Shown in pieces: positions 3-59,257 of a stretch of DNA of 64,000 nt. The translations under genes and the position numbers were made by a program. The notes under the pieces were generated by a model. It saw only the letters and a list, made by a program, of their open reading frames with translations, was not told where the DNA came from and made no database searches. Positions within the stretch are counted from its first letter, which is position 1; every line of letters starts with the position of its first letter. The stretch comes from a virus (Duplodnaviria; Caudoviricetes), in IMG/VR virus record IMGVR_UViG_3300025889_000071; one strand, 5' to 3'.

Positions 3-3000
3 TCTATTAGTGCAATAAATGCAAACTTCACGGGCGTTACCAGTATAACATCACTTGCTCTTGGTGAACAATTAGCATTAAGTTCTTTCAGTGTAAGTTC
101 AGAATTTGTTAGTACTGCAGGTGTTAGTACACTTTCTGCCACACAAATATCAACATTAGAAGTCACTGGCATTTCCACATTAGGTCAAACCACAACTGCA
201 GGTCTTAAGAATACTGGAATTTCAACATTAGGTAATGCAACAGCAGACACTTTAGTTGTCTCTGGATTTAGTACTTTTGGTGGTTCATCTGCAACTTTAC
301 TTAACATTTCTGGTGTCTCTACACTTACTGGAGGTGTTAATGCTGATGCAGGTATTAAGGCCGCAAGATTAAGTGTTACCGGTATTACTACATTAGGTCA
401 AACTACAACTACTGGCTTTAAGAACACTGGAATTTCTACATTAGGGAATGCAACAGCAGACACTTTAGTTGTTTCTGGTGTCTCTACACTCACTGGTGGA
501 GTAAATGCTGATGCTGGAATTAAGGCTGCCAGATTAAACGTTACTGGTATTACTACTTTAGGTCAAACTACAGCATCAGGATTAAATGTTGCTGGTATTA
601 CTACATTAGGTCAAACCACAACTGCAGGTCTTAAGAACACTGGCATTTCCACTTTAGGTAATGCTACGTCAGATACTTTAGTTGTTACCGGTATTACTAC
701 ATTAGGTCAAACCACAACTGTTGGTCTCAAGAACACAGGCATTTCTACATTAGGAAATGCAACAGCAGATACATTATCTGTCTCTGGTGTTGCTACTGCA
801 AGTTCCTTCAGTGGTTCTGGTTCTGGTTTAAGTGATGGAACTGTACCAATTGCATCTCTTGATATTGATGGTGGTACAGAACTATCATCTCTGGCTAATG
901 AAGATTTATTCATTGTTGATGATGGTGCAGGTGGAACTAATCGTAAAATTACTGCAAGCAACGTAAGTGCATATGTTCTTGGTGGTGCATCAGGAAGTGT
1001 TAATTTCCAGAACTTGAATGTGAGTGGTATTGGTACAATAGTTAATCTTATATCAACTAATGCAAATATTAGTGGAGTATTAACAGCTACTAATATTGAA
1101 GGTAATGGTGATGGAATTACTTCAATTCGTGCAGGTATTCTGACCGGTTCTCTTCCTCCGATTGATGGAAGTCAACTGACAGGAATTGTTGCAACTGGTA
1201 CTGGTGTTCAAATATTTGATGGATATGGTGGTTCTTATGGATATGGTGCTGTTTATTCGGGTATTGGTATTACTTTTGTATATAATACTGATAACGTTAC
1301 TGTAGATTTCAATGCAGGAATAACAACAATTGGCCTTTCAACCTCTGTGAGCATTGGAGGTTCAATGACTGCAACATCATTCCATGGTGATGGTGCGGGT
1401 CTTACAAATGCTGGTGCTTTCAACTATGATAACACCACAAATATTTTTGCACAAAATATTACATCATTACCAAATAGAACTGATGGTGCTGATAACTTCT
1501 TTGCAGGTAGATCTGCAGGACATAATATTACTAGTGCAGACAACAATATTGCAATAGGATCTTCTAGTGGTTTAAACCTTACATCCGGACACAATAATAT
1601 ATTCCTTGGTGCTTGTGCAGGATGTAATACTGATACTGCATATCATAATGTATTCCTTGGTGCATGTGCAGGATGTAACAATAGCGGTGGCGATTATAAT
1701 ACCTTCATTGGTCAGCATTCGGGACGTGATAACACATCTGGAAATTATAATACTTTCATTGGTCGTTCTGCAGGATACAACAACAATACTGGCGATTATA
1801 ATACCTTCATTGGATATTGTGCAGGATATGACAATTGCAATGCTTCAAACAATACCTTCATTGGATATCTTGCAGGAAGGTGCAACAGCACTGGAGCTGG
1901 TAATTTCTTCGTTGGTCAGTGTGCAGGACATTTCAGTTGTAGTGGATTTTACAATAACTTCCTTGGTGATAGTGCAGGATATTGCAACACCTCTGGAACC
2001 AATAATAACTTCCTTGGTAGATGTGCAGGATGTAGTAATACCTCCGGATCTTATAATAACTTCTTTGGACATGATGCAGGATGCAAAAACACCACTGGAA
2101 GTTGTAATAACTTCATAGGCGAGTGTGCAGGATTCTGCAACACCGATACTAATGGCTCAGTAGCAATTGGACAATCAGCAGGATATCATAATGATGCTTC
2201 TGATAATGTCTTCTTGGGAAGAAATGCTGGATTTACTACTGTTACTCGTTCTTCAAGTGACCTTATTACGGGTTCTCATAACTTCATATCGGGTGTTGGA
2301 GCTGGTTCCTCATTAACCACTGGATGCAATAATACCTTCATTGGTAATAGAGTAGGAAGATACAACACCACTGGAGATTACAATAACTTTCTTGGCAATT
2401 TTGCAGGAGGAAATAACACCACTGGAGGTTGTAATAACTTCTTTGGTAATCAGGCAGGATACTACAATACCACTGCAAATAATAATAACTTCCTTGGTAG
2501 TTCTGCCGGATACAAAAACACCACTGGAAGTCATAATAACTTCCTTGGTGATAGTGCAGGATATTGCAACAATTCTGGAAGTAATAATAACTTCATTGGT
2601 GAGCGTGCAGGATTCTGCAGCGTCGATGGATGTCACAACAACTTCTTTGGTTGTCGAGCAGGATGCAAAACCACTGGAGTTTGTAATAACTTCTTTGGTG
2701 CAGCTGCAGGTGTAAGTAACACCTCTGGAAGTAATAATAACTTCTTTGGTAATGCAGGAGGAAATAATACCACTGGAAGTTATAATAACTTCTTTGGTCA
2801 GTCTGCAGGATGGGTCAACTCTTGTGGATGCCATAATAACTTCTTTGGTTGTTGTGCAGGATACAGCAACAGCACTGGATGTTATAATAACTTCTTTGGT
2901 CCTTTTGCAGGAAGATGCAACACCACTGGTTATGATAACGTAGCAATTGGCCGATGTGCAGCACATTGCAGAACCACTGGTCATAGTAATGTTTCTATAG

Positions 3001-4265
3001 GTAATTCTGCAGGTTACTTTAGTACTGGTAATAATAATACCTTTATTGGTGTCCTTGCAGGTTCAGGTTTTGCTAGTGCATCTGGTTCGTATAACATATT
3101 CTTTGGACATTGTTCAGGTCGTTCAAATACTAGTGGAGCATGTAACCTTTTTGCAGGTTTAAGAAGTGGTGCATGTAATACAACAGGAGAATTCAATATC
3201 TTCTTTGGACATTGTGCAGGACATTGCAACACTGATGGAGATTGCAACATTGTTGCTGGTTATAAGGCAGGTTTCTCAAATGAAACAGGTTGTCATAATG
3301 TCTTCCTTGGTTGGTGTGCTGGTGCCACAAGCACTAAAGGAGAACAGGTTGCAATTGGATATAATGCAAGAGTTGCTGCACCTACAGAAAGCACCCAATT
3401 AGCAATTGGTATTGGTAATACAAATTGGATTGATGGTAATGAGTCATACTTTGTTGGATTTGGAATTACTAATCCAACACAAAGAGTTGATGTTGGTGGA
3501 AACATAAAGGTTTCTGGAGAACTTCATGGTCCAACTAACTTCGTCATTGATCCAGCGGCAGTTGGTGATAATACTGGTTCGGTAAGAATTAAAGGAGACC
3601 TTTATGTTGATGGTGATAACTTTGTTGTCAATTCGGAAACAATTACTCTTGGTGATTTTGTAGTTGGTATCGCATCCACAGTTCCAAATCGCACTGAATT
3701 GGATGGTGCAGGAATTGGAATTGGCAGTGATGTTACTTTCCTTTATGATGATACAAATACTGCACTTAAATCTAATGTAAATCTGAATCTTTCTTCTGCT
3801 GATAAAACATATAAGATTAATGGAACTGATGTTCTGTCTGCAACAACGCTTGGATCTGGAGTTGTTAATTCTTCACTAACATCTGTTGGAAATCTTACAT
3901 CATTAACTGTTAGTGGGGATGTTAGTGTCAATGGTAGTGGAGGTATTTCGGTTGTCGGTGTTGTAACTGCATCTGACTTCAATTCAACTTCTGATCAAAA
4001 ACTGAAGACAAACATACAGAGAGTTGAAAATGCAGTTGATAAGGTACAACAAATTGATGGTGTATCATTCAATTGGATTGAAAATAATAAACCTTCTATG
4101 GGTGTTATTGCTGACCAGGTTGAAAAAGTTCTGCCTGAACTGGTAAGTAATACCGATCCGAAGACGGTTAATTACAACGGATTGATAGGTCTTCTGATTG
4201 AGGTTGTAAAAGAACAACAAACACAAATTAATGATTTGAACGAAAGACTATCAAGACTTGAGTGA
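3..4265 (+). CDS. Tail fibre/adhesin with 16-aa and Cys-rich 14-aa repeats and a C-terminal peptidase S74 intramolecular chaperone (5' partial)
   Basis: Hand translation shows the frame open from base 3 into the 1014..4265 ORF with no stop, so the true start lies upstream of the window. The C-terminus TSDQKLKTNI...VSFNW...MGVIADQVEKVLPELV plus a coiled coil is typical of S74 chaperones. Confidence 0.9.
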   Translation, partial: SISAINANFTGVTSITSLALGEQLALSSFSVSSEFVSTAGVSTLSATQISTLEVTGISTLGQTTTAGLKNTGISTLGNATADTLVVSGFSTFGGSSATLLNISGVSTLTGGVNADAGIKAARLSVTGITTLGQTTTTGFKNTGISTLGNATADTLVVSGVSTLTGGVNADAGIKAARLNVTGITTLGQTTASGLNVAGITTLGQTTTAGLKNTGISTLGNATSDTLVVTGITTLGQTTTVGLKNTGISTLGNATADTLSVSGVATASSFSGSGSGLSDGTVPIASLDIDGGTELSSLANEDLFIVDDGAGGTNRKITASNVSAYVLGGASGSVNFQNLNVSGIGTIVNLISTNANISGVLTATNIEGNGDGITSIRAGILTGSLPPIDGSQLTGIVATGTGVQIFDGYGGSYGYGAVYSGIGITFVYNTDNVTVDFNAGITTIGLSTSVSIGGSMTATSFHGDGAGLTNAGAFNYDNTTNIFAQNITSLPNRTDGADNFFAGRSAGHNITSADNNIAIGSSSGLNLTSGHNNIFLGACAGCNTDTAYHNVFLGACAGCNNSGGDYNTFIGQHSGRDNTSGNYNTFIGRSAGYNNNTGDYNTFIGYCAGYDNCNASNNTFIGYLAGRCNSTGAGNFFVGQCAGHFSCSGFYNNFLGDSAGYCNTSGTNNNFLGRCAGCSNTSGSYNNFFGHDAGCKNTTGSCNNFIGECAGFCNTDTNGSVAIGQSAGYHNDASDNVFLGRNAGFTTVTRSSSDLITGSHNFISGVGAGSSLTTGCNNTFIGNRVGRYNTTGDYNNFLGNFAGGNNTTGGCNNFFGNQAGYYNTTANNNNFLGSSAGYKNTTGSHNNFLGDSAGYCNNSGSNNNFIGERAGFCSVDGCHNNFFGCRAGCKTTGVCNNFFGAAAGVSNTSGSNNNFFGNAGGNNTTGSYNNFFGQSAGWVNSCGCHNNFFGCCAGYSNSTGCYNNFFGPFAGRCNTTGYDNVAIGRCAAHCRTTGHSNVSIGNSAGYFSTGNNNTFIGVLAGSGFASASGSYNIFFGHCSGRSNTSGACNLFAGLRSGACNTTGEFNIFFGHCAGHCNTDGDCNIVAGYKAGFSNETGCHNVFLGWCAGATSTKGEQVAIGYNARVAAPTESTQLAIGIGNTNWIDGNESYFVGFGITNPTQRVDVGGNIKVSGELHGPTNFVIDPAAVGDNTGSVRIKGDLYVDGDNFVVNSETITLGDFVVGIASTVPNRTELDGAGIGIGSDVTFLYDDTNTALKSNVNLNLSSADKTYKINGTDVLSATTLGSGVVNSSLTSVGNLTSLTVSGDVSVNGSGGISVVGVVTASDFNSTSDQKLKTNIQRVENAVDKVQQIDGVSFNWIENNKPSMGVIADQVEKVLPELVSNTDPKTVNYNGLIGLLIEVVKEQQTQINDLNERLSRLE
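169..790 (+). repeat. In-frame 48-nt (16-aa) tandem repeats, GI(S/T)TLG(Q/N)xTxxxLxxx, with 23-aa variants
   Basis: Units such as GISTLGQTTTAGLKNT and GISTLGNATADTLVVS recur about 12 times. Confidence 0.9.
1483..3330 (+). repeat. 42-nt (14-aa) repeat array, NNF(F/L/I)GxxAGxxNTTG, Cys-rich
   Basis: Directly visible in the translation of the first fibre; boundaries approximate. Confidence 0.9.
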
Positions 4266-4267
4266 TT

Positions 4268-4275
4268 ACTAAATA
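4268..4275 (+). promoter_or_regulatory. T4-type late promoter (ACTAAATA)
   Basis: TAAATA core right after a stop codon and about 35 nt before the fibre ATG; matches the gp55 late consensus TATAAATA. Confidence 0.65.
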
Positions 4276-4309
4276 ATAAAAAACTACCCAGTATATACGA
4301 GGACGGTAG

Positions 4310-7300
4310 ATGGCTATTAAAATTTCCAATTCTACTATTATCGATGATAATAGAGATATTCTAAATGCTGGAACCACGGGTGTTGGAACTATAACCGTTG
4401 GTTCTGGCGTTACAATTTACAATGAGGGTGGTGGTAGTGCATACATTGGATTTGCAACTCATAATGTTAGAATTGGAGATAGCACAACAGGTCAATCATT
4501 AACAAGCGGAAAAAATAATACTTTTATTGGTGTTGGTGCAGGACGTAGCAACACCTCTGGAACTAATAATATCTTCTTTGGTCAACAATCAGGATTCTGT
4601 AATACTTATTCTAATGGTTCTGTAGCAATTGGTGCATCAGCAGGATATCATAATAATGGTGATGACAATGTTTTTATTGGCCGAAATGCTGGATTTACTA
4701 CTGCTACTCGTTTTTCAGGTAATCTCATTTCAGGTTCTAATAATTTTATATCAGGTGTTGGAGCTGGTTCATCATTAACCTTTTCAAACCATAATGTCTT
4801 TATTGGTCTTTGTGCAGGACACTATACCACTACCGGAAGTTATAATATATTCCTTGGAAAATTTTCAGGATGTAGCAACACTACCGGAGGATATAATAAT
4901 TTCTTTGGGGCATGTGCAGGATATTCTAACACTAGTGGATGTCATAATAACTTCTTTGGACACTATGCAGGATGTTCTAACACCAGTGGAAAGTATAACA
5001 ATTTCCTAGGCCTCAGTGCAGGATGTAATAATACCGAAGGATGGTATAACAACTTCCTTGGTATTTGTGCAGGATTCAAAAACACCACTGGATGTGATAA
5101 CAACTTCCTTGGTCAGTGTGCAGGAGTTTGTAACACCACTGGATGTAATAACAACTTCCTTGGTGAGTGTGCAGGATTAAAAAACACCACTGGATGTGAT
5201 AATAACTTCCTTGGTCTTCGTGCAGGAGTTTGTAACACTGAAGGATGTCATAATAACTTCCTTGGTGAGTGTGCAGGATTCAAAAACACTACCGGATCAT
5301 ATAATAACTTCCTTGGTCCCTCTGCAGGCAAATGTAATACTACTGGAGGTTCAAATAATTTCTTCGGAGTTCTTGCAGGATTCCGTAATACTGTTGAGTG
5401 TGGAAATGTTTATATTGGGGAATGTGCAGGATATAATTCACAGGGACATACTGCATGGGATAGTGTTGATGCAAGTGAGCAATATAACACCTTTATAGGA
5501 TATAGAGCTGGATTCTCTACAGCATCTCCATATGGATTTTCGCGTAGAAACGTTGCAATCGGATATTGTGCAGCTGGTTCTATAGGAGTAGCTTTCCCTC
5601 AACAAGGTGGAATAGATTATTGCCCAATTTCCAACATATTCATTGGAGAATGTGCTGGTTATAATGCTAATGGCGACATGTATGATAACGTTTTCCTTGG
5701 AAGATATGCAGGGGAAAAAGCTTCAGGTTGTGTCACCAATAACGTTGCTATTGGACGTAGTGCTCTTGGTTATGCTGAAAATAATTTATGGAATGCCTTG
5801 TCCAAATCCGAGCATAATATAGCAATTGGATATTTTGCTGGTTATTTATCTCGTGATGGATGTTATAATAACTTCCAGGGATATCAGGCAGGATGTAGTA
5901 ACACTACTGGATGGCATAATAACTTCTTTGGACAACAAGCAGGATTGTGCAACACCACTGGATGCTATAATAACTTCCTTGGACGATGGGCAGGATGCTT
6001 CAACACCACTGGAAGTGTTAATAACTTCATTGGTTATTGTGCAGGATGTAGCAACACCACTGGATCCAATAATAACTTTCTTGGACAAGGTGCAGGAAAG
6101 TGCAACACCTGTGGAGGTTGTAATAACTTCATTGGATGTGCTGCAGGACGGTCCAACACCACTGGATGTTATAATAACTTCTTTGGCAGAAGGGCAGGAT
6201 ACGGTAACACCACTGGATTCCATAATAATTTTATTGGTCATATGGCAGGATGTAATAACCTCTCTGGAAATTCCAATAACTTCATTGGATATCAGGCAGG
6301 CCTGAACAACACCTCTGGAGATTGTAATAACTTCTTTGGATCTATGGCAGGAAGAGCCAACACCACTGCATGTCATAATAACTTCATTGGTTCATGTGCA
6401 GGATGCAGAGTCAACACCGGAGGTTATAATAATTTCTTTGGTAATTTTGCAGGAAGGTATATCACTACTGGATGTCATAATAACATCCTTGGCCATTGTG
6501 CAGGACATGGCACCTTTGCAATTGGAGAAACAATAAATGGATGCCATAACAACTTCTTTGGACAATATGCAGGGATCTCGATTACTTCCGCAAGTTATAA
6601 TAACTTTATTGGTTTTCGTGCAGGTGAAGGTCAGAAAAATGTATTATTTTACAGTAATTGTGCGACAGGGTGCCATAATAACTTCTTTGGAAGTTATGCT
6701 GGTCGTTATAATCTCTCTGGTTCTAGCAATATTTTCCTAGGTCAATGTGCAGGTAACACAAATACCACTGGTTCTTGTAATATTGCCATTGGTAGGGATG
6801 TAGAGCTTCCATCTGCAACTGGTGACAAACAACTTGCAATCGGTGATGGAACTGATCGTTGGATTAGTGGTGATAGTGATTTCATTGTAACTGCAAATGT
6901 AAGAGGATCCACACGTCAGATTGTTGGTTATAGCACTGATGCTACTTTTACACAACCAATAACTGCAGCCCAATTTAACACTATTGATGATATGGCTATT
7001 GAGATTACTCTTAACAGTGCTTCAAATAAAGTTCTTGTTACTTTTGATCTTACTGGAGAATTTGCTAATACCGCTAGTAATTATGATACTGGCATTTCTA
7101 TTCAAAGACATAGTGGCAATTATGCAGGTGGATTCATAGATGTGGCACCAGGAGAGACCGCTGCCGGATATCATAATTCTGCTGGAAGCAGAAATCGTGG
7201 AATAACAACACCAGTTGTGAATTATTCTCAAGACGCTGCCAGCACTGCAGAAAAACTATCAATTATCAATTTCCTGGATAGTCCAAATACAACTGGTATT

Positions 7301-7432
7301 GTGACATATTACCCAACAATTTATCCAAGAATCACCGACACTTGGTATGGTAATAGAACGGTCGCTGATACTGACGGCAATCAACATGAAAGATTTATTT
7401 CATACATCACTCTTCAAGAAATTGTTGGTTGA
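4310..7432 (+). CDS. Second fibre/adhesin-like virion protein with Cys-rich 14-aa repeats
   Basis: 1040 aa. MAIKISNSTIIDD fibre-type N-terminus, the same repeat family as the upstream gene, a globular C-terminal domain, and a GAGGA RBS. Confidence 0.85.
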   Translation: MAIKISNSTIIDDNRDILNAGTTGVGTITVGSGVTIYNEGGGSAYIGFATHNVRIGDSTTGQSLTSGKNNTFIGVGAGRSNTSGTNNIFFGQQSGFCNTYSNGSVAIGASAGYHNNGDDNVFIGRNAGFTTATRFSGNLISGSNNFISGVGAGSSLTFSNHNVFIGLCAGHYTTTGSYNIFLGKFSGCSNTTGGYNNFFGACAGYSNTSGCHNNFFGHYAGCSNTSGKYNNFLGLSAGCNNTEGWYNNFLGICAGFKNTTGCDNNFLGQCAGVCNTTGCNNNFLGECAGLKNTTGCDNNFLGLRAGVCNTEGCHNNFLGECAGFKNTTGSYNNFLGPSAGKCNTTGGSNNFFGVLAGFRNTVECGNVYIGECAGYNSQGHTAWDSVDASEQYNTFIGYRAGFSTASPYGFSRRNVAIGYCAAGSIGVAFPQQGGIDYCPISNIFIGECAGYNANGDMYDNVFLGRYAGEKASGCVTNNVAIGRSALGYAENNLWNALSKSEHNIAIGYFAGYLSRDGCYNNFQGYQAGCSNTTGWHNNFFGQQAGLCNTTGCYNNFLGRWAGCFNTTGSVNNFIGYCAGCSNTTGSNNNFLGQGAGKCNTCGGCNNFIGCAAGRSNTTGCYNNFFGRRAGYGNTTGFHNNFIGHMAGCNNLSGNSNNFIGYQAGLNNTSGDCNNFFGSMAGRANTTACHNNFIGSCAGCRVNTGGYNNFFGNFAGRYITTGCHNNILGHCAGHGTFAIGETINGCHNNFFGQYAGISITSASYNNFIGFRAGEGQKNVLFYSNCATGCHNNFFGSYAGRYNLSGSSNIFLGQCAGNTNTTGSCNIAIGRDVELPSATGDKQLAIGDGTDRWISGDSDFIVTANVRGSTRQIVGYSTDATFTQPITAAQFNTIDDMAIEITLNSASNKVLVTFDLTGEFANTASNYDTGISIQRHSGNYAGGFIDVAPGETAAGYHNSAGSRNRGITTPVVNYSQDAASTAEKLSIINFLDSPNTTGIVTYYPTIYPRITDTWYGNRTVADTDGNQHERFISYITLQEIVG
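4510..6810 (+). repeat. 42-nt (14-aa) Cys-rich repeat array in fibre 2
   Basis: NNNFLGxCAGxxNTTG units visible in the translation; boundaries approximate. Confidence 0.9.
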
Positions 7433-7481
7433 TCTCTTTTTATAGAGAATGTTATAGTGTAATTGAGGTTATTGATTAAGA

Positions 7482-7489
7482 ACTAAATA
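7482..7489 (+). promoter_or_regulatory. T4-type late promoter (ACTAAATA)
   Basis: TAAATA core 30 nt upstream of the sulfotransferase ATG. Confidence 0.6.
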
Positions 7490-7518
7490 CAGTATGATTG
7501 ATTGAGTTGTATTATTCT

Positions 7519-8427
7519 ATGGCATTTCTTTCACAATTGAGCAACAAGAATAAGTCAGGTTCAGAAAGAAAGTTTTACTTTATGGCAGGTCTTCCACGTT
7601 CTGGAAGTAGTTTATTATCTGCACTATTGAATCAAAATCCAAGATTTTATTCTGGACCTTCAAGTCCTGTTCTTTCAACAATGTATTCAATTGAAAATCA
7701 TCTGGCAAATGATGAATTATATCATGGTTATCCAAAAGAACAACAGGCATTTGAATTGATTTCTAGTGTCATTCATCACTTCTATAGTGATGTATCTGAC
7801 CCAGTGATTATAGATAAAAATCGTGCATGGCCTGCAAGAGTATCATATATTGAAGGGTATATTGGACATAAAGCAAAGATTATTTGTCCTGTAAGAGACA
7901 TTGATGAGATTCTGACATCAATGATTACGATGATTCGTCGTAATCCTTACAAAGAGGGACAATCAAGAATTAACTTTATTGATGAACAATTGGTTAAACT
8001 CAATATTCCAATCAGTGATGATAATCGTTGCGAGTATATTGCAGGTCCTGAAGGTATTTTGGGACAATCACTCAATGCAATGATGGAAGGTGTAAATCAA
8101 GGATTTGCAGATAGATTGCATTTTGTAGAGTATAAAGACCTCGTAAATAAACCTCAAGAAACACTTAATCAAGTGTATGAATTTCTTGAAGAAGAACCAT
8201 TTGAGCACACATTTGATAATCTTAAGAATGAAAATCAAGAGAATGATTTGAATACTTATGGGCTTGCAGATATGCACCATGTTCGTGCAGAACTTAAATC
8301 AACAGCATCAAATCCAGAAGAGATTCTTTCTCTAGATGTTAGAAAAAGATGTGAAGGCATGGACATTTGGCGTCAAATCAATTATAATCAGAATGAACAA
8401 GTTGTACCTAATGTAATTAAGATATAA
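7519..8427 (+). CDS. Sulfotransferase family protein (PAPS-dependent, P-loop fold)
   Basis: GLPRSGSSLL 5'-PSB loop, DKNRAW, VRDIDEILTS 3'-PB motif and FVEYKDLV. Start taken at the first ATG. Confidence 0.85.
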   Translation: MAFLSQLSNKNKSGSERKFYFMAGLPRSGSSLLSALLNQNPRFYSGPSSPVLSTMYSIENHLANDELYHGYPKEQQAFELISSVIHHFYSDVSDPVIIDKNRAWPARVSYIEGYIGHKAKIICPVRDIDEILTSMITMIRRNPYKEGQSRINFIDEQLVKLNIPISDDNRCEYIAGPEGILGQSLNAMMEGVNQGFADRLHFVEYKDLVNKPQETLNQVYEFLEEEPFEHTFDNLKNENQENDLNTYGLADMHHVRAELKSTASNPEEILSLDVRKRCEGMDIWRQINYNQNEQVVPNVIKI

Positions 8428-8428
8428 A

Positions 8429-9343
8429 ATGAAAGAAAAGTATTGTATTTTTCATGTTCAAGGTGGACTTGGAAAGCACATTGCATCTACAGCAGTTGCA
8501 AAGTGTATTAAAAATAATTATCCAGAACGAAAACTCATCGTAGTTGCCGTTTATACTGACGTATATCTTAATCTTCCCTTCATTGATAGGGTATATCAAT
8601 TAGGAAATACGAATTATTTTTACCAAAACTATATTGAAAATAAGGACTCTTTGATTTTTCATAATGAGCCTTATTTTACAACAGATCATGTTCATAAACG
8701 TCTTCCACTAATTCAAACTTGGTGCAAGATGTATGGTTTGAATTATCGTGGAGAGATGCCACAAATTAAATTCAATCCACTACAAAAGAAAATTTCCAAA
8801 GATGTATGGAAAAAAGGTGATAAACCAATGATGGTTATTCACACTAATGGTGGATTGATTGAACCAAATGCAAGACCATATCTATGGGCACGAGATATGC
8901 CCATAGATATTGCACAAGAAATTGTTGACAAATACCATAAAGATTATACGATTTATCAGTGCACAAAGGTCAATTCAGAAAAATGTATCAATGCCGAAAT
9001 CATTGAATTCGGATTTGAACAAGGTAGTATGCAGTTAGGAATCCTTGAGTTTTTGAGTATTATTTTACATAGTGACAAGAGGATTCTGATTGATAGTTCA
9101 CTACAACATGCTGCAGCTGCACTGAAACTTCCATCATTGGTTCTTTGGAATGGAACAAGTCCAAAGGTATTTGGATATGATATGCACACAAACCTTGAAA
9201 CTATCAAACCACAAAACTTCAAACTTCCCGGAAGTTATTTGTTTGATTTTGATTTCAATGGTCCAGAGCATGAATATCCATTTGATGAGGATGAGAAGTT
9301 ATTTGATACTGACAAAATTTTTCAATACATAGAAGAGAAGTAA
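8429..9343 (+). CDS. GT-B glycosyltransferase, GT9/heptosyltransferase-like
   Basis: N-terminal GGLGKHI and C-terminal IDSSLQHAAAALKLPSLVLWNGTSPKVFGY resemble the GT9 DSGxxHxAAAxxxPxxxLxGxTxP signature. Confidence 0.75.
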   Translation: MKEKYCIFHVQGGLGKHIASTAVAKCIKNNYPERKLIVVAVYTDVYLNLPFIDRVYQLGNTNYFYQNYIENKDSLIFHNEPYFTTDHVHKRLPLIQTWCKMYGLNYRGEMPQIKFNPLQKKISKDVWKKGDKPMMVIHTNGGLIEPNARPYLWARDMPIDIAQEIVDKYHKDYTIYQCTKVNSEKCINAEIIEFGFEQGSMQLGILEFLSIILHSDKRILIDSSLQHAAAALKLPSLVLWNGTSPKVFGYDMHTNLETIKPQNFKLPGSYLFDFDFNGPEHEYPFDEDEKLFDTDKIFQYIEEK

Positions 9344-9355
9344 AGGAGTAAAGTT

Positions 9356-9589
9356 ATGCCTTCAGAAGAAATGACCCCAGAAGAAATCGCAGGAACATAC
9401 AATGCTGCGATGGACAGTGTAAATCTCATCAATAGAATTGTAGAGCAAGAAATTCTTTCAGAAGATGATGAAGATACTGTTAGTCGTAATGTAGAACATC
9501 TTAAGATTCAAGTAGGAAAAGATTTTTGGACTACAGAAGATCTAACACCATTCAATGATGCGATCACAGCTGGTGAAGCAGTTCTCTGA
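9356..9589 (+). CDS. Small acidic tail-fibre-associated protein
   Basis: AGGAG RBS. The YxAAMDSVNLIN...RNxEHL...KDFWTTED pattern resembles proteins I recall following phage fibre genes. Confidence 0.55.
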   Translation: MPSEEMTPEEIAGTYNAAMDSVNLINRIVEQEILSEDDEDTVSRNVEHLKIQVGKDFWTTEDLTPFNDAITAGEAVL

Positions 9590-9610
9590 TTATCATTCGT
9601 AACAACACTT

Positions 9611-9642
9611 ACCTCTTGAACTTTTGTTTCAGGAGGTTTTTT
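9611..9642 (+). terminator. Intrinsic terminator ending the fibre operon
   Basis: 10-bp stem ACCTCTTGAA/TTCAGGAGGT followed by TTTTT. Confidence 0.85.
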
Positions 9643-9647
9643 AATGC

Positions 9648-9676
9648 TTGACAAACACTTAAAATATGTGTACAAT
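9648..9676 (+). promoter_or_regulatory. Sigma70-type promoter
   Basis: TTGACA-17-TACAAT. Confidence 0.8.
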
Positions 9677-10358: not shown

Positions 10359-11597
10359 ATGCAAAAACCCACACTTTTTCAAACTTCAATTATGCAGACC
10401 AATCAAAATTTTATGATCCCGCTCAAGGAGCCTATTAGTCTTCTTGAATATGCTTACCTTCTGCTTAAGACCCGTAAGTTTTGTGCTCCAGAGCAATTCC
10501 AACGCCCTGAAGCATGGCAAGTAAAGGATCGTAAATCATTTTTTCAATCAGTGTTGATGAATCGTGCAGAAGGCACTCTTGTCTTGGTTGATATTCAACA
10601 ATGTATCGAACGTATGGAATATGGCGGAGATACAAGTAGCGATACTTATAAATTTTTCAAAAAATACTTTAATGAAGGGTTCAAGTATTTTGTTCTAGAT
10701 GGTAACAACCGTCTGTGCTTTATCACTTCTCTTCTAGAAGATAATTATCTTATTCCCGAAGGGACTTACGAATTTATCAGTGATGAAGTCAACGGAAACA
10801 TTTCATCATTTACTGTTCGCAAGGGAAAGCAAAAGTTCTCTGACCTGCCTACACGAGTTCAACGTGTTATTCAATCTCGAAAGTCTGTGTTGAGTGTCTA
10901 TACTCAAATTACCTTGGAAGGTATGTCTGAAGTGTTCCAAAATGTGAACTCTGGTGTTCCTCTTAACGCACAAGAACTTCGCAACGCATATTCTTCTCCT
11001 TGGGCTGAGTTTTTTCGCGATCTTTCAAAGGAGGTTGCACCTCTTCTTGGTTACACTCACAAAGACCCCATTTTCCGTCTTAAGGGTCAAGAATGGTTGG
11101 TTGATTGTATTGCCATGGCAATTGATGGAATTGCAATCAATGAAGTTACTGGAGAACTTCAATTTACTGGAGTTACACAAACATCTAAAAACAAACTGTA
11201 TAAGAGCACTTTCTTTACTCAAGAGGAGCAAAACTTCTATACTAATAAATTCATTGAATTGATGGATTTCATTTCTCAAATGCTCCATGATGAAATTCTT
11301 GAAGAAAAATCTCTCAAGCAAAAATCTAAAATCCAAAATCTTTATTGGATGATGACAACTGTTGATGGAATTGAGACCTATGATCAAGCAGTTGCAGCTG
11401 TTGAAAAGCAAGAAATTGCTTATCTTGACAAGCAACGTAAGTTTGGTGAAGAGGACAAAACCTTCCGTCAATGTTGTGAAGGCATGAATGCTGAAAACTT
11501 GGAGGTTCGATACACAATTCTTACCGAAATTCTTACCGAAGTGGTCGGTGAGCGCAATGATTTCTCTACTCTCAATGAAGTTTTTGAAAGTGTCTGA
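10359..11597 (+). CDS. DUF262 (GmrSD N-terminal/ParB-Srx-like) domain protein
   Basis: FQRPEAW, VLDGNNRL and FQNVNSGVPLNAQE match the DUF262 motif order. Confidence 0.7.
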   Translation: MQKPTLFQTSIMQTNQNFMIPLKEPISLLEYAYLLLKTRKFCAPEQFQRPEAWQVKDRKSFFQSVLMNRAEGTLVLVDIQQCIERMEYGGDTSSDTYKFFKKYFNEGFKYFVLDGNNRLCFITSLLEDNYLIPEGTYEFISDEVNGNISSFTVRKGKQKFSDLPTRVQRVIQSRKSVLSVYTQITLEGMSEVFQNVNSGVPLNAQELRNAYSSPWAEFFRDLSKEVAPLLGYTHKDPIFRLKGQEWLVDCIAMAIDGIAINEVTGELQFTGVTQTSKNKLYKSTFFTQEEQNFYTNKFIELMDFISQMLHDEILEEKSLKQKSKIQNLYWMMTTVDGIETYDQAVAAVEKQEIAYLDKQRKFGEEDKTFRQCCEGMNAENLEVRYTILTEILTEVVGERNDFSTLNEVFESV

Positions 11598-17452: not shown

Positions 17453-17455
17453 TAG

Positions 17456-17483
17456 TGGGCCCTTCAAAGTGTCCTTATAGTAT
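17456..17483 (+). repeat. Cassette repeat copy 6
   Basis: TGGGCCC TTC AAAGTGT CCTTA TAGTAT. Confidence 0.95.
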
Positions 17484-19724: not shown

Positions 19725-19752
19725 TGGGCCCCTTAAAGTGTCCTATTGATGT
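19725..19752 (+). repeat. Cassette repeat copy 8
   Basis: TGGGCCC CTT AAAGTGT CCTAT TGATGT. Confidence 0.95.
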
Positions 19753-19763
19753 AGGTAAAGATT

Positions 19764-21194: not shown

Positions 21195-21386
21195 ATGGAA
21201 AATGGTCAAGAGATGCAAGCTATCAGGGACTTTCTAACAGATGAGCAGTGGCACATTGTGATTGATGCTATCGAACAAGAAGCATTTTTATTGGATGAAA
21301 GTGAGGAGTATTTTGATAAGTGTGAGGACATTATAAACAGAATCCATTCATTGCTTCACATTACTGGGCCCTCTAAAGTGTCCTAG
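21195..21386 (+). CDS. Small acidic hypothetical protein
   Basis: The last codons (TGPSKVS*) are read through repeat 9. Confidence 0.6.
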   Translation: MENGQEMQAIRDFLTDEQWHIVIDAIEQEAFLLDESEEYFDKCEDIINRIHSLLHITGPSKVS

Positions 21387-21392
21387 TTGTAT
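21365..21392 (+). repeat. Cassette repeat copy 9
   Basis: TGGGCCC TCT AAAGTGT CCTAG TTGTAT. Confidence 0.95.
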
Positions 21393-22358: not shown

Positions 22359-22511
22359 ATGAACGAAACTGAACTCGAAGCTCTTGAAGTGATGGAAACC
22401 ATTGAGGATTCCGTTGAATATATTTGTAATGAGTATATGTTAAGTGGAGAGAAAGTTTGGACTATGATTGCAGCACTTGCTGATGCAAAGATTGCACAAT
22501 TTCCTGATTGA
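22359..22511 (+). CDS. Small hypothetical protein
   Basis: First ATG of the tracked ORF. Confidence 0.6.
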   Translation: MNETELEALEVMETIEDSVEYICNEYMLSGEKVWTMIAALADAKIAQFPD

Positions 22512-22518
22512 TAATGAG

Positions 22519-22546
22519 TGGGCCCTTGAAAGTGTTTCAGTAGTGT
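22519..22546 (+). repeat. Cassette repeat copy 11
   Basis: TGGGCCC TTG AAAGTGT TTCAG TAGTGT. Confidence 0.95.
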
Positions 22547-22567
22547 AAGTCGTTCGTTATTTCAGTC

Positions 22568-24318: not shown

Positions 24319-24346
24319 TGGGCCCCTGAAAGTGTTTCAATAGTAT
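24319..24346 (+). repeat. Cassette repeat copy 13
   Basis: TGGGCCC CTG AAAGTGT TTCAA TAGTAT. Confidence 0.95.
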
Positions 24347-24363
24347 AGGATACCATTTCTCTC

Positions 24364-28990: not shown

Positions 28991-29401
28991 ATGCCATTAG
29001 AACGGGTCAGTCGGGGATTTAAGGATGTGAGTTTGGCTTTTTCGCCAAATCCAGTCACTAATGACTTGATTGTACTCAATAATGAAAGAGCAATTGCAAG
29101 ATCTATTCGTAATCTAATATTTACACAAACTGGGGAAAAATTTTTCAATCCAGATCTTGGCACTCATACATTAAATCCAAATTTTCCACTATTTGAAATC
29201 ATTGATAATATCAATGCGACCGAATTTAGGGAAAATCTTCTCAATTTGATACAAAATTATGAACCAAGGGTTTCTGTTATAAATGTATTAGTAGAACCTG
29301 ATTGGGATAATAATGGATATAATATTACAATTTCATACAGAATCATAGGAGCAGATATTGTTCCGCAGCAATTAGAATTTGCAATTTTACCAACAAGATA
29401 A
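28991..29401 (+). CDS. g25: Baseplate wedge subunit gp25
   Basis: RSIRNLIFTQTGEKFFNPDLG...NYEPRV; position before g6; late promoter AATAAATA at 28952-28959. Confidence 0.92.
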   Translation: MPLERVSRGFKDVSLAFSPNPVTNDLIVLNNERAIARSIRNLIFTQTGEKFFNPDLGTHTLNPNFPLFEIIDNINATEFRENLLNLIQNYEPRVSVINVLVEPDWDNNGYNITISYRIIGADIVPQQLEFAILPTR

Positions 29402-31351: not shown

Positions 31352-34300
31352 ATGGCAGAACAAAGAGTTAAGGTTAGTCAAATTGTTTCTAATCAACTTC
31401 CCGAATATGTAAGACTACAATATCCACAATTTGTTCAATTTTTGACGCAGTATTATCAGGGTCAGGAATATCCAGGAGCTCCTCTTGACTTAATACAAAA
31501 TATAGATTCATATATTAAAATAAATGAGAATGGAAATACTGTTGGTTTTACGTCTCTTTCTAATGATATTGATGTTATTGACAATTCCATTCAAGTAGAT
31601 AATACTAGTGGATTTCCTGAAAAATATGGATTATTAAAAATTAATGATGAAATTATCACATATTCTGGAACAACTTCAACTTCATTTACTGGTTGTGTAC
31701 GTGGATTTAGTGGTATTACTTCATTTACATCATCAGACAATATAGAAGATCTTGTATTTTCAAATTCAGAGGCATCTTCACATTCTGAGGGCGATAATGT
31801 TGAGAATTTAAGTAGATTATTCTTACAAGAATTTTTTAAAAAGATAAAAAAACAATATCTATATGGACTAGGTGATCAAAAATTAACGGATAATTTAAAT
31901 AAATCCCAATTTATCAGGAGTGCGAAAGATTTTTATTCAATAAAAGGAACTGATGCTTCGTTTAAAATTCTTTTTAAAGCACTTTTTGGCGAAAACGTTG
32001 AAATAGTTAGGCCATCGGACTATGTTATTTCACCTTCAAATGCCATTTATCAAAAAACAAAGGATTTAGTAGCAGAATTTATATCTGGAGATCCATATGA
32101 TTTAGTTAATAAAACTCTTTATCAAAGTGGTGATGAAAATATACCGGAAGCATATTCGCCAGTTTCAAATGTAGAGAAAATATCTACTGGTTCATTAAAT
32201 AAGGATTATTATCGAATAACCATAGATGGTTCTTATCTCAAAAAAGAGGGATCAAATACAGAATCAATATATGATAATTTTTCAATACACCCAAAAACAA
32301 AATGTATTGGTGAGATTGGTATTGGACAAACATTCATAGATGTTGACTCTACAGTAGGATTTCCAAATTCTGGCTCTTTAGATGTTGTATATAATGATTT
32401 CACTACGGATACTATCACATATTCAAACAAGACAATTAATCAATTTTTGGATGTATCAGTAATATCTAAAAGAATTTTAGATGGTTCTGATATAGATTAT
32501 TCATCCTTTGCATATTCTGCTGGATTAGGTAGAACTGATGGGATTAAATTAAGAATAAGATCGGTGATAGGTGGATATAATATTCCAAAAGTAACTTATC
32601 AACAAAATATTGGTTCTAAGATAAAAATAAAATCTTTAGGAAAAATTGGCAATAAACTTAAAGAAAATAATTGGATATTTAACAATTCCCAATCATATAA
32701 TGTGGAGTCTTTGGAATTAATTGACTCTAGAAATTTCGTTTATAGATTAACAACTATTGATGATAATATTCTAAGAGTTGGCGATACTTTGAGATTAAAA
32801 TCACTAAATGATGTATTTTTAACTGATGATTTTACAGTTACAACGATAATTAATAATAAAATTTCTTTAATACGTGGAAGTGACGTTGAAAATCCCAACG
32901 GAATAGTAAGTGTTAATAGAATTTTAAATAAAGTTAAAACTAATATACACCCACAACTTAGTAAATTTACTGCAAATGTTCAAAATGTTTATATCGATAA
33001 TGATGATGATAGTGTTTTAGTAGCTTCAAATTCTTTGCCGTATTTTGAGTCACCTACAAATCCAGATATTCAAAAAATAATTCTTTCTGGTTTAGTTGCA
33101 AATAATCAAACTACACTTAAAGTTACTGAAGATTTTGATCATAATTTTTTCACTGGAGATTCAATTTATTATACTCCAAATAAAGATAATAATGGTAATG
33201 TGATTAGTAAAATTTTTGATGAAGGTTTATATTTTGTTCATAGAGTTGATTCTAATAATGTAAAGTTGGCAAAAAGTGGATCTGATTTATATAACGAAAA
33301 ATATGTTACAATTGATGATCTTTCCGGAAAAGCAAACGTAGATATTACTAATCATATTATAGAAAAATATGCATTTAATGGGAAGATTATTGAGCCGCAA
33401 AAATTAATCAGAAAAATTCCCAATATCCATAATCAGAGAGATGATGAAGTAAATGAAAAGTCACTTGCCACTAAAGCAGGGGCTACTGGAATTTTTATAA
33501 ATGGTGTTGAAATTTTAAATTATAAGTCTCATAGTTATGTGCATTATGGAGAAATTGAAGAAATTAATCTTACCTCCCCTGGTTTTGGATACGATGTGAT
33601 TAACCCACCACTATTATCAATTTCAGATTCTGTTGGTAGTGGAGCCACTGGAGTCTGTGGCGTGAAAGGAAACTTTGTAGATATTGATTTAATCGATGGG
33701 GGATTTGATTATCTTGATATTCCATCTATTCAAATAACCGGTGGAAATGGAAAATCAGCCAAAGCATCTGCAAATACAACGTTTGTAGATCATACACTCT
33801 CATTTGATTCCTCCAATCTACTCGACATTTCTGTAGATTTTGAATTGAGATCTGGTTTTGGTGGAATTTCAACTGAAACATCAAAAATTGGATTTTCAAC
33901 ATATCATAGATTTAAGAATGGAGAATCTGTAGTATATAAAACTCTTGGAGGAAATGCAGTCACAGGATTGTCAACGGATTCAACATATTATGTAAATGTA
34001 GTTAATGATTATGATATAAAGTTACATTTATCTAAAGGAGATGCATTAGCATCCTCTGGAACTGGTATTAATACAATTTCTTTATCGGATTTTGGAACGG
34101 GTAATCATTCTTTTACTGCAATACCAAAACTATCAGTTTCTTCAATAAGAATTATTGATCCTGGATTTGATTATGAAAATAAAAAGAGAATGTGTTCATC
34201 AGCGGGTATTAATACTTCCATCAATACGATAGATATACTAAATCATGGGTATAAAACTGGCGAAATAATTAGATATTCTTTTAATGAAACATCTATTGGA

Positions 34301-37300
34301 GGTCTTTCTACAACAAAGGATTATATAGTAACAACTATTAATAATGATTCCTTTAAATTATCTGATGTTGGAATCGGTTCTGATTTAAAATATTTGTATT
34401 TTAATAGAAACGTCTTTAAAAATTTAACGTCTTCTGGTTCGGGATTACACACTTTCAATTATCCAGAAATTTCTGTAAAAGTTATTGGAAAAGTTGGAGT
34501 AACTTCTATAGGTGAAGATACTTTTGAAGCTAAAGTTCAACCAATAGTTCGTGGTGAGTTAACTTCAATACATTTAACTAATAATGGACAAAATTATGGA
34601 ACTAGTAGAATCTTAAACCTTAAAAGATTGCCAAAGGTAAGTTTAATTAGTGGAACTGATGCTGCACTAAAACCTGTCATACTAAATGGACAAATTGTCA
34701 ATGTCGTAATTTTAAATTCTGGAAAAGATTATACATCTATACCAGATTTGATTGTACGTGGTACAGGAACATCTGGAAAATTAGTACCGATATTAAAAGA
34801 TGGTGCTATTGTTGATGTTAAAATATCCAGACCTGGCGTTGGATATGAGCAAAATTCCACATCAATTGAAGTGTTGCCGGCCGGCAATAATGCAGAATTT
34901 GAATCAGTAATTCAATCGTGGAGAGTGAATGAGGTTCGAAAAAATCTATCAAATGTCAAGGATGATGATATTTTTGTTTCTCCTAGTATGAATGATGGCA
35001 AAGGATTGCAGTGTTATTTTGCTTATGGCCCAAGAAATTTAAGAAAATTAGTATATTCCACTGATAGGGGTGGGAGAATTTTGTATGGTAGAAATGATCT
35101 AAGAATTGTGAATGGATTAGAGTCTAGCAATATAAACCACTCACCAATTATTGGATGGGCATATGATGGAAGTCCGATATATGGTCCATATGGATACAAG
35201 ACAAATAAAGGAACTGGAGGAGTAACACAACTTAAGAGTGGTTATACATTAAAGTTATCCCCCAATAGACCTCCATTAGTAAATTTTCCTGAAGGATTTT
35301 TTGTTGAGGACTTTGAGTGGAGTTATTCTTCTTCTGAAGATACTCTTGATGAAAATAATGGAAGATTTTGCATAACACCAGAATTTCCAAATGGAATCTA
35401 TGCGTATTTTACAACTTTTGACGCAATACCATCAGAGGATGGGGTATTTAAAAATTTTAAAGCACCCACATTTCCATATGTAATTGGAAATTCATATCAT
35501 AAAACTCCAGATGAGTTTAATTTCAAAAAAAGATCAAATCAGGATGATATAAATTTAAATGATTTTAATATAAGTAGAAATACATATCCATATTTGCTGT
35601 CTAATGATAATAGTGGTTATGATTATCTGGTAGAATCTTACAAATTTACCGATCAAGATCCTACTATTACATCAGTAAATAGGGGAAATATTACATCAAT
35701 TGGTATTGTTAGTGAAGGTATAAATTATCAAGTTGATGATACAGTCGTTCTTGACGCATCGACCACCTCTAGAGATTTTGGGCAAAGTAACAAAGTTTCT
35801 CTGATAGGAGGAGTTGGTGTATCTTCAATATCTTGCGAAACCTTTATCGTACCAAACTTAGAATTTTATCCAAATGGAAGCACTGTAGTAGCTGTACACA
35901 CTACTAACCATAATATTAGTAATAATGAGGCATTGAATGTAGTTGGACTGAGCACTGAAAAATACATTAAACCGGGTCAGTATACTGTTGGTATTTCTTC
36001 ATTAACATTTGAACTGCAAAATACTTTAAATGCTCAAAATATAACCGGAATTGTTACTTACATAAACATTAAGGCTAATACAACTTCATTTTTCTCAGAC
36101 TTAAAGTTTGTAGAACCAAATGATGTATATAATTTATATGCAAATAAGACGTATACTGAATCAGTTCGTGTTCTTCTCCCACAGGTCGGAACTGCAATTA
36201 CAAGCAAGGCTTTGGATCCTGAAAGCAATCCTACAAGATTTACCGATGCTGCCGTATATGACTATATATGGGATAATTATGATGAATTTGATGTTGATGG
36301 TGATGGAGTAGTTTCTTTTAATGATGCGATAGTTATAGTAAGACACCTGTATGGAGACGAGGTTAAGGAAAGGGGTGCTTTTTCTGGAAATCGTATTTTT
36401 TCTACAGGTGGCGGTATTAGTGGAATTGGTTATAGTGGTGTGCCGGCCGCCGCCACAAGAACTACCAACAGAGAAGTGAGAGATTTCTTGGATTTCAGAT
36501 CTTTTCATTCTAGGGAAGGTAATATTGGAGTTTCTACAAATGTAATTACTGGTATACAAACGGGATATCTTTTTTATGGATCAGATCCAGATAATGTTGT
36601 TCGTGGAAAAGTTAGTATTGGCCAATCCGTCAACAGTACATTTGTGGCTGCTGGCACTACAGTGACTGCTATTGGTAAAAATTCTATTACTATCAGCAAC
36701 ACTACAACAAATACAGAAACTCAAGTAGGAACTTCAATTACATTTGGAAATGGATTGTATGATGTTGATGGTAATGGTCAAATAACTGTTTTTAGTGATG
36801 GCATAATGATAGCTAGAGTTTTTGGCCCTAGTGAATTTAAAAATCCATCTGATAATGGCATAGCTGGTTTTGCTACTGATAATACAATTTTTGATACTCT
36901 TAAGGTTTTAAATATAGATCCAGATTTGGGAAGAATTAGAGTATTACGAACAGGTAATGGAACATATAGTGGTGTATTTGGTTCTAACAGTGAACTTGTA
37001 GAAAGATCTAGAAAAGTAGAGATTCCATTCATTGGAATTTCAACAGTTAATGACTCAAGAAAAACCTATGAGTATTATTTTAATCCTACAGAATCCATAG
37101 GAATAGGGGAAGACATTAGTGCAGGTGCAGGTACTACAATTACATTTACGAATCCTGGTGCTGGCCAAACTCAGGTCTTTGTTCCAACCAGAGCAATTTA
37201 TCTTCCATATCATACATTAAGAACTGGTGATAAAGTTGTATATAAGACAAATATTGGAGATACAATAGGTGTATCTACTGTTAGTGGAGGTTCTAGTGTA

Positions 37301-57037: not shown

Positions 57038-57044
57038 GAACTTA

Positions 57045-57061
57045 TTGGCCCTCTAAAGTGT
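57045..57061 (+). repeat. Degenerate 15th copy of the cassette repeat
   Basis: TTGGCCC TCT AAAGTGT; 15 nt identical to copies 4 and 9, with no -10-like tail. Confidence 0.6.
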
Positions 57062-57065
57062 AGAA

Positions 57066-59190: not shown

Positions 59191-59257
59191 AAGATAAATA
59201 TTTTTAATGCCTGGTATATACTAGGTTTAAGGTAAATACCATCAATGAGGAAGTTGA

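Follow-up and report, generated by a model that had tools for sequence, protein, structure and literature searches.

A sulfotransferase and a GT9-fold transferase in a phage tail-fibre operon: a candidate system for modifying the phage's own fibres

INTRODUCTION

Protein heptosylation by enzymes of the TibC/Aah family (bacterial autotransporter heptosyltransferases [BAHT], related to glycosyltransferase family GT9) is known for bacterial adhesins, and the known substrates of the family are repeat-rich beta-helical proteins encoded next door. Here, these enzymes (PDB 4RAP and 4RB4) are compared with a pair of phage genes, one for a predicted sulfotransferase (ST) and one for a predicted GT9-fold transferase (GT), that lie in a tail-fibre operon of the IMG/VR virus record IMGVR_UViG_3300025889_000071 (Duplodnaviria; Caudoviricetes), of which a stretch of 64,000 nucleotides, called the window throughout, was analysed. 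In both systems, a soluble cytoplasmic enzyme with a GT9-type GT-B fold is encoded beside a repeat-rich, probably beta-helical surface protein. However, the partner protein of the phage GT is a fibre with 17-amino-acid (17-aa) repeats where the bacterial enzymes have an autotransporter, and the phage GT comes coupled to a sulfotransferase.

Freeman et al. (Cell Host Microbe, 2023; cited in PMC12801897) are reported to have found that mycobacteriophage-encoded glycosyltransferases, encoded beside structural genes, decorate virion proteins in the cytoplasm. Phage transferase genes adjoin structural genes in that system and in the window, but the transferase families and hosts differ, the targets there are the capsid and tail tube as opposed to fibres, and no sulfotransferase takes part. 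For bacterial operons, Iyer and Aravind predicted in 2010 that hydroxylases and sulfotransferases modify co-encoded tail-collar or collagen-like proteins (PMC2938197). That proposal also has sulfotransferases and 2-oxoglutarate (2OG)-Fe(II) oxygenases co-encoded with fibre-like proteins as proposed substrates, and some loci related to the window carry such oxygenases. However, it concerns bacterial operons and hydroxylation-dependent sulfation, has no GT9-fold partner, and is itself a prediction. The role of phage sulfotransferases was stated to be unclear in a 2023 paper (PMC10580990), and literature searches returned no description of a phage module combining a GT9-fold transferase with a sulfotransferase, nor of any sulfated phage virion.

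Our preferred reading, to which we assign a probability of roughly 55%, is that the ST-GT pair acts in the cytoplasm on the phage's own fibres, modifying them probably late in infection. This reading draws on gene context and predicted folds.

RESULTS

An ST-GT pair linked to repeat fibres across viral loci

On the plus strand of the window, the genes run in the order fibre 1, fibre 2, ST, GT, and sm77 (a small protein of 77 aa), with intergenic gaps of 44, 86, 1, and 12 nt, the GT start codon falling 1 nt past the ST stop codon. The first-pass annotation, made from sequence alone, had placed a sulfotransferase and a GT9-like transferase between repeat-rich fibres and a small protein, and this layout as a co-directional fibre operon was borne out. 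No transmembrane-like stretch was found in ST or GT.

An alignment-based scan of IMG/VR using a 10-sequence GT alignment returned 80 loci, and 86 GT-bearing loci, with GTs 42 to 98% identical to that of the window, were analysed. Of the 86, 75 had ST next to GT, with either gene first and the two often abutting, which makes GT-ST a conserved two-gene module; the pairing was also present on contigs binned into bacterial metagenome-assembled genomes. Each of the two families comprises more than 2,000 metagenome clusters at 90% identity, and in PHROGs both carry the label "unknown function".

For the fibre test, island enzymes and genes shorter than 140 aa were skipped, and a fibre was defined by homology to four seed repeat fibres. 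Using this definition, the nearest flanking substantial gene was a repeat-fibre homologue in 32 of 55 groups dereplicated at 90% GT identity, compared to 12.5 expected, and not one of 20,000 draws placing the position at random within the same 20-kb locus reached 32. Dereplication at 70% GT identity gave 16 of 24 groups, compared to 4.5 expected, and the association held across at least 12 distinct gene orders. The co-occurrence with such fibres in other genomes that the first-pass annotation had proposed as its check is thus a strong one, spread over many arrangements. The fibre cluster used, built by single linkage, is of mixed composition, with 15-aa-repeat and collagen-like fibres among its members, and several of its large members matched no PHROG. 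In 62 of 64 distinct upstream arrangements, the preceding gene in the same direction lay less than 100 nt away.

Two loci (L011:1038-9980 and L012) have no adjacent 17-aa-repeat fibre. Their ST-GT pair is preceded by a DUF6445 gene, a second ST paralogue, a GT4 gene, a 2OG-Fe(II) oxygenase gene, and genes for two large proteins (610 and 754 aa; PHROG 19111), which may be a different kind of target.

An independent lineage among isolate phages

A layout of fibre, GT, and sm77 recurs in an independent lineage. The Pelagibacter podovirus HTVC111P (and its relative 112P) has the order tail fibre (gp52), GT (gp53), and sm77 homologue (gp54). The gp52 protein is 32% identical to fibre 1 over ~700 aa and has the same 17-aa repeat and S74 domain, while gp53 belongs to the GT family by hhalign (99.7%; E of 1e-25). 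Among 50,697 phage records, the fibre type occurred in 18, the GT family in 5, and both in 3. In a Vibrio N4-like phage, a distant GT homologue has a tail fibre gene on one side and a gene for a tail protein on the other. CRP-1 gp42 was considered as a hidden GT and rejected (hhalign probability of 0.1%).

Homologues of sm77 were present in seven phage records (CRP-1, CRP-7, CRP-831, HTVC111P, HTVC112P, Venkman, and MW202545), comprising roseophages, pelagiphages, an OM43 phage, and one uncultured phage. All seven carry the 17-aa-repeat fibre type, and in the three records inspected, two of them lacking GT, sm77 lay within the fibre cluster; homologues were located at L101:5001-5249, L102:4998-5246, and L104:4968-5210. 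Because the fibre type is common to all of these records and sm77 sits inside fibre clusters with or without GT, context supports the earlier description of sm77 as a fibre-associated small protein, and ST and GT are therefore inserted between the fibres and a fibre accessory gene. The protein may be a fibre assembly or attachment factor. Conserved positions in its family are S..LI, RN..HL, and I..G; a role for sm77 as a conserved substrate of tyrosine sulfation was rejected since Tyr is not conserved.

A predicted PAPS-type sulfotransferase

The ST passed the Pfam thresholds for both Sulfotransfer_3 (58.0 bits; cut-off, 27) and Sulfotransfer_1 (36.2 bits; cut-off, 22). It contains PRSGSS at residues 26 to 31, resembling a 5'-phosphosulfate-binding (5'-PSB) motif, and VRDIDEILTS at residues 125 to 134, resembling a 3'-phosphate-binding (3'-PB) motif, which we take, from general family knowledge, to bind 3'-phosphoadenosine 5'-phosphosulfate (PAPS). 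Within them, P26, R27, G29, S30, R126, E130, and S134 were invariant across 28 homologues. These features clearly point to a PAPS-type sulfotransferase, with activity predicted, and the original sulfotransferase call holds. Homology begins near residues 17 to 24, which makes the ATG at 7519 the likely start.

A predicted model of ST (predicted local distance difference test [pLDDT] score, 86) was closest in fold to the tyrosylprotein sulfotransferases TPST1/2 (Z of 17.6 to 18.0; root mean square deviation [rmsd] of 3.6 to 4.0 over ~240 residues), followed by the ST domains of CurM and olefin synthase (OLS) (Z of 15.3 to 15.6) and heparan sulfate 3-O-sulfotransferase (3-OST) (Z of 13 to 14). 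With TPST1/2 (PDB 5WRJ and 3AP1), the nearest fold at a Z of ~18, the window ST has in common the Sulfotransfer_3 family and the PAPS-binding motifs, but it is only 16 to 18% identical to them, and the fibre repeats of the window are not acidic. A phmmer comparison with TPST covered residues 14 to 58 alone and was not significant (E of 0.3 to 0.9). Because the model most resembles protein-tyrosine sulfotransferases, sulfate could be placed on protein rather than on a glycan. Of the sulfated glycan originally proposed, the PAPS-type fold of the enzyme thus stands, but the sulfate may sit on the protein.

A predicted GT9-fold transferase outside the TibC/Aah family

Sequence comparisons of GT gave low scores: 16.0 bits (E of 0.0078) against Pfam Glyco_transf_9 (PF01075), below the cut-off of 22, and an E of 0.08 at best, to WaaF, for a profile of 67 GT homologues against the PDB. 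Sequence searches of GT and of its N-terminal half against the PDB gave nothing usable. The AlphaFold model (pLDDT, 94.5) matched 3tov (Z of 22.8), WaaF (1psw; 20.8), TibC (19.5), and WaaC (19.3), with an rmsd of 3.0 to 3.4 over 243 to 266 residues for these GT9 folds, a Z of 10.6 for the next fold class, and Foldseek E-values of 4e-11 to 1e-7 against GT9 structures. The model therewith strongly supports a GT9-fold (GT-B) transferase, with activity predicted. At 50% identity, the family forms 672 clusters; its PHROG entry is 8954.

The nearest structures, WaaC, WaaF, and a Veillonella GT9 protein (PDB 2H1F, 1PSW, and 3TOV; Z of 19 to 23), are only 11 to 13% identical to the window GT. The C-terminal donor-site motif D-S-x-x-x-H-x-A-A-A of WaaC/WaaF is present in GT, whose residues 222 to 232 (DSSLQHAAAAL) aligned to the donor-site region of WaaF (249 to 293). 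D222, S223, Q226, and H227 were at least 90% conserved in the 67 homologues, as were G12, G13, G15, and K16. The latter form a GGxGK motif where GT9 enzymes have LGD. The catalytic Asp is presumably Asp13 in WaaC and Asp110 in TibC; by these numbers and the alignment ranges (model residue 4 to WaaC 1; model residue 3 to TibC 96), K16 probably falls at its position. The window GT thus differs from WaaC/WaaF in probably having Lys at the presumed catalytic Asp, and its context is a phage fibre operon, not a lipopolysaccharide (LPS) core cluster.

In an NCBIfam scan of GT, weak matches to RfaQ and heptosyltransferase I were among those listed, and TIGR04414 was not. Cysteines occur only at positions 6, 26, 99, 178, and 187, with no CxxC, and the alignment to TibC begins at TibC residue 96, the first ~95 residues having no counterpart. 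Because it lacks a TIGR04414 match, the Cys finger, and the N-terminal extension, the window GT falls outside BAHT. The profile and structure check proposed in the first-pass annotation, GT9 against BAHT, therefore returned a GT9 fold, but no BAHT membership and a score short of the Pfam GT9 cut-off. GT41, the family of HMW1C, was absent from the listed fold and family matches of GT, an absence that does not exclude the family.

Companion genes in related islands

In 13 related loci (cluster c15; e.g., L040:9067-9984), a TibC/Aah-type homologue lies directly upstream of GT. This homologue matched TIGR04414 at 118.6 bits (E of 3e-34) and the PDB structure of TibC (4RB4) at 1e-14; its C-terminal C-x-x-C...C...C Cys-finger motif aligned to TibC, and it keeps LGD. 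In L040, it sits downstream of fibre genes, with a GT8 gene on one side and the GT9-like/ST pair on the other. The presence of a true TibC/Aah homologue beside the pair adds weight to the analogy with TibC/Aah. The earlier analogy, which had also named HMW1C, therefore survives through these neighbouring genes, but the window GT is not itself a BAHT, and no search returned similarity to HMW1C.

In ~22 loci, ST is followed by a trio of genes encoding an adenosine 5'-phosphosulfate (APS) kinase, a nicotinamide mononucleotide adenylyltransferase (NMNAT)-like nucleotidyltransferase of 136 aa, and a DUF2061 protein (e.g., L042:11703-12158, L041:9588-9998, and L043:12610-13050). The trio may be a phage PAPS pathway in which the small nucleotidyltransferase replaces ATP sulfurylase, and the repeated company of an APS kinase argues for real sulfation chemistry. 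Other recurrent neighbours include GT8, GT4, GT2, and 2OG-Fe(II) oxygenases, and in some phages the pair is immediately followed by genes for the tail sheath, the tail tube, and the baseplate hub. The window itself has none of these extras (APS kinase trio, extra GTs, oxygenases, or TibC/Aah).

Fibre repeats

Both fibres of the window repeat with a period of 51 nt, or 17 aa, where the first-pass annotation had read 14 aa. The consensus is N-N-F-[ILF]-G-x-C-A-G-x-x-N-T-[TS]-G-[CS]-[YH], and the G..AG anchor recurs at a spacing of 17 in 24 of 35 cases in fibre 1 and 30 of 39 in fibre 2. Fibre 2 contains 4.6% Cys and 4.7% Tyr and matched PHROGs 6002, 4636, and 23837, with no family matched in a Pfam scan; the PHROG matches of fibre 1 are tail fibre and virion structural families. 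Separate from the 51-nt repeats, the N-terminal part of fibre 1 (window positions 307 to 776) contains longer tandem repeats with 165-nt and 96-nt units (82 to 86% matches).

Promoter motifs and terminator

Three structural-region genes (starts at 28991, 54759, and, for neck gene gp14, 57066) have NATAAATA 28 to 38 nt upstream. The motif ACTAAATA, which precedes both fibre 2 and ST (Table 1), differs from it by one mismatch and is, by sequence, a candidate late-promoter-like variant. CTAAATA occurs just 5 times on the plus strand of the window and by count is not enriched. At the equivalent site, NCTAAATA is present in the close relatives L004 and L005 and also in L062 and L064; it is absent from most loci. 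A motif directly before the pair was found in 7 of 64 distinct upstream regions, which is the background frequency, and a conserved dedicated late promoter for ST-GT was therefore rejected. Of the pair's own late promoter at 7482, as first annotated, the motif itself exists (7482 to 7489), but it is not conserved.

The single terminator proposed at 9611 to 9642 fared better: its stem (9611 to 9637) and T-run form the top terminator-like site within the first 14 kb, with a ten-pair stem, a 7-nt loop, and a folding energy of -13 kcal/mol (z of -3.4 compared to shuffles). The gap between fibre 2 and ST contained no terminator-like site, and transcripts from the fibre promoter are therefore also expected to read through. 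Upstream of ST, only a weak sigma-70-like match (9/12) was present, no better than in shuffles.

Table 1. Features of the fibre-ST-GT-sm77 region (window coordinates)
Feature	Position	Strand	Remarks
Fibre 1	3-4265	+	5' end beyond window; C-terminal Peptidase_S74 chaperone domain (Pfam PF13884, 1.7e-14)
ACTAAATA late-promoter-like motif	4268-4275	+	41 nt 5' of fibre 2 ATG
Fibre 2, 1040 aa	4310-7432	+	Cys-rich 17-aa repeats N-N-F-x-G-x-C-A-G-x-x-N-T-T/S-G-x-x; C-terminal part non-repetitive
ACTAAATA late-promoter-like motif	7482-7489	+	36 nt 5' of ST ATG
ST, predicted PAPS-type sulfotransferase, 302 aa	7519-8427	+	Sulfotransfer_3, 2e-15; open reading frame opens at TTG 7498
GT, 304 aa, predicted GT9-fold (GT-B) transferase from a phage family of its own	8429-9343	+	Predicted-structure matches
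sm77, 77 aa	9356-9589	+	Acidic, isoelectric point 4.05; AAGGAG just upstream
Intrinsic terminator	9611-9642	+	Closes fibre-ST-GT-sm77 unit
Sigma-70-like promoter TTGACA-17-TACAAT	9648-9676	+	11/12 matches; marks operon boundary

The phage and the rest of the window

The window derives from a T4-like marine phage that encodes homologues of gp6, gp8, and neck proteins. Its closest isolate or single-cell phage record is Marine virus AG-345-L05 (Kyanoviridae; ~62% protein identity), a megablast search of isolate phages with the region returned no nucleotide-level match, and metagenome contigs of up to 215 kb carry the same genome. Past the promoter that marks the operon boundary begins an early-type block with a helicase, a DNA methylase, and a GmrSD-like protein. 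The last of these, right after the fibre operon (10359 to 11597; 412 aa), has a GmrSD_N (DUF262) nuclease-type domain and a DUF3843 domain; such a restriction-like enzyme is unusual on a phage.

An intergenic motif, GGGCC(C)nTnAAAGTGT, recurs at positions ~17455 to 17480, 19725 to 19760, 21350 to 21390, 22510 to 22560, 24320 to 24360, and 57040 to 57065, just 5' of several genes. Most copies are in the early-type block, with a single one ahead of the 57066 neck gene, and the motif may have a regulatory or promoter function. The baseplate region contains two giant open reading frames, one of 4429 aa (31352 to 44641) flanked by gp6- and gp8-like genes and one of 2702 aa (46226 to 54334) just past the gp8-like gene. 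At ~59200 to 62700, where GC content rises to 0.43, collagen-like coding repeats (GGT GCT CAA GGT; Gly-Ala-Gln/Gly-Ala-Thr triplets) lie upstream of short ATG-initiated frames, and at least one long collagen-like fibre gene is probably encoded there.

DISCUSSION

Under the fibre-modification reading, ST and GT would work together as a pair of soluble enzymes in the cytoplasm. They would probably be co-transcribed with the fibre genes, late in infection, and would modify the repeat fibres of the phage itself ahead of their attachment to the virion. GT would move a sugar from a nucleotide sugar, ADP-heptose being the usual donor in the GT9 family, to a side chain of the 17-aa repeats or to a sugar already there. 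The PAPS-dependent ST would then sulfate that sugar, or a fibre hydroxyl such as that of tyrosine. Adsorption or stability may be affected as a result; mimicry of cyanobacterial polysaccharide, shielding against proteases, and receptor binding, all raised in the first-pass annotation, are speculation. We consider this reading the best supported because the pair is embedded in fibre operons across unrelated phage types, because two rare families co-occur in isolates, and because both a companion from a protein-heptosylating family and an ST fold resembling protein sulfotransferases fit with it.

Several observations weigh against it. The excess of fibre-adjacent groups (32 compared to 12.5) is inflated by shared ancestry, the loci having been dereplicated by GT identity alone, and in ~40% of the dereplicated groups no homologous fibre is adjacent. 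The regions that hold fibre genes are hypervariable and collect accessory genes, and in some phages receptor-modifying genes also sit beside tailspike genes. All characterised GT9 enzymes that we know of, except the TibC/Aah family, act on the LPS core, and neither the window nor five partial relatives (records 15 to 59% complete) yielded a TibC/Aah gene. Because Lys probably occupies the position of the presumed catalytic Asp, GT may use a different mechanism or acceptor, or be inactive. Most isolate phages with the fibre type have no GT (P-SSM2, P-SSM5, CRP-1, and Venkman), and the N-T-T-G motif is equally conserved in fibres with no GT neighbour. Many members of the fibre family thus do without these enzymes, so any modification would be an optional decoration. 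The equal conservation also led to rejection of N-T-T-G as a marker of glycosylated fibres.

The main rival, and a live one even if we judge it unlikely, places the target on the host: acting at the cytoplasmic face, the pair would modify an envelope glycan (LPS core, O-antigen, or exopolysaccharide precursor), masking the receptor of the neighbouring fibres. The benefit would be superinfection exclusion, or progeny that do not stick to cell debris, and the locus would be a cassette combining receptor binding with receptor modification. Some temperate phages carry serotype-converting genes next to their tailspike genes. Among the nearest structures of the GT model are WaaF and WaaC, both LPS heptosyltransferases (Z of 19 to 21), and the Joint Genome Institute (JGI) names many GT homologues ADP-heptose:LPS heptosyltransferase. 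Fusions of GT family members to FkbM methyltransferase or GT25 domains, together with the GT2, GT4, and GT8 neighbours, are typical of glycan-building clusters, and in S-SRM01 distant ST homologues lie within a sugar-nucleotide and glycosyltransferase cluster with no annotated fibre gene nearby.

However, a host-glycan target sits poorly with a pair placed in a tightly packed co-directional fibre operon with a weak sigma-70-like match upstream, since exclusion functions are usually early or lysogenic. The GT-fibre-sm77 arrangement, with homologous fibres, is found in both a cyanomyovirus-like phage and a SAR11 podovirus, whose hosts are unrelated and whose envelope glycans therefore probably differ. 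No island contains a flippase, polymerase, or priming transferase; within 6 genes of GT, no protein with at least 4 transmembrane segments, as such types have, was found in the 86 loci. The companion TibC/Aah homologue comes from a protein-modifying family, and the fold of ST is nearest to protein sulfotransferases, both of which point away from host glycans.

An alternative that we regard as improbable keeps the fibre as the target and removes the sugar: ST alone would modify the fibre, O-sulfating tyrosine (or Ser/Thr) residues of the protein, with GT separate or non-catalytic, and the product would be a sulfated protein with no sulfated glycan. TPST1/2 are the top fold matches, more than 2 Z units above every other class, position 17 of the repeat is Tyr in 11 of 40 fibre 2 units, and the GT family has GGxGK in place of the LGD that the companion TibC/Aah-type gene keeps. 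Against this, the sequence similarity of ST to TPST is not significant, and TPST usually needs an acidic context, which the fibre repeats, with 5.1% Asp plus Glu, do not offer. The strict adjacency of GT and ST, with 1-nt or overlapping junctions, the conserved D222, S223, Q226, and H227, and the frequent extra glycosyltransferases all argue for an active GT in the same pathway.

Least probable of all is an accessory metabolic cassette acting on a small molecule or other non-fibre target and merely located in a hypervariable region by the fibres, for which the second-best ST matches (CurM and olefin synthase domains, which act on acyl intermediates), the frequent 2OG-Fe(II) oxygenase neighbours, the groups with no adjacent homologous fibre, and the unclear function of phage sulfotransferases (PMC10580990) might be cited, but with which fibre adjacency far above random placement in the same loci, a co-occurrence of two rare families in isolate genomes that is hard to get by chance, and an arrangement kept across unrelated phage types are difficult to reconcile.

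Returning to modification of the phage's own fibres, a broader form of that reading can be put forward tentatively, at somewhat less than even odds: many aquatic phages would place a sulfated modification (a sulfated heptose or hexose, or sulfotyrosine) on their tail fibres by means of a TPST-like ST and a GT from a new GT9-fold subfamily, with Lys where the catalytic Asp usually lies, helped in some lineages by a TibC-type heptosyltransferase and a phage PAPS supply. To our knowledge, this would, if true, be the first sulfated bacteriophage virion. Virus-encoded modification of virion proteins is a known kind of process; the new elements would be the sulfation step and the GT subfamily. Pelagibacter phage HTVC111P, with its fibre, GT, and sm77, offers a cultivable entry system.

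If the reading is true, O-glycosylation of proteins by TibC/Aah-type enzymes would extend from bacterial adhesins to viruses. Because tail fibres determine the cells a phage can infect, fibre decoration would be a so far overlooked factor in host range, adsorption, particle stability, and evasion of fibre-sensing defences, and in marine phages it would give a new level of control over host range and stability.

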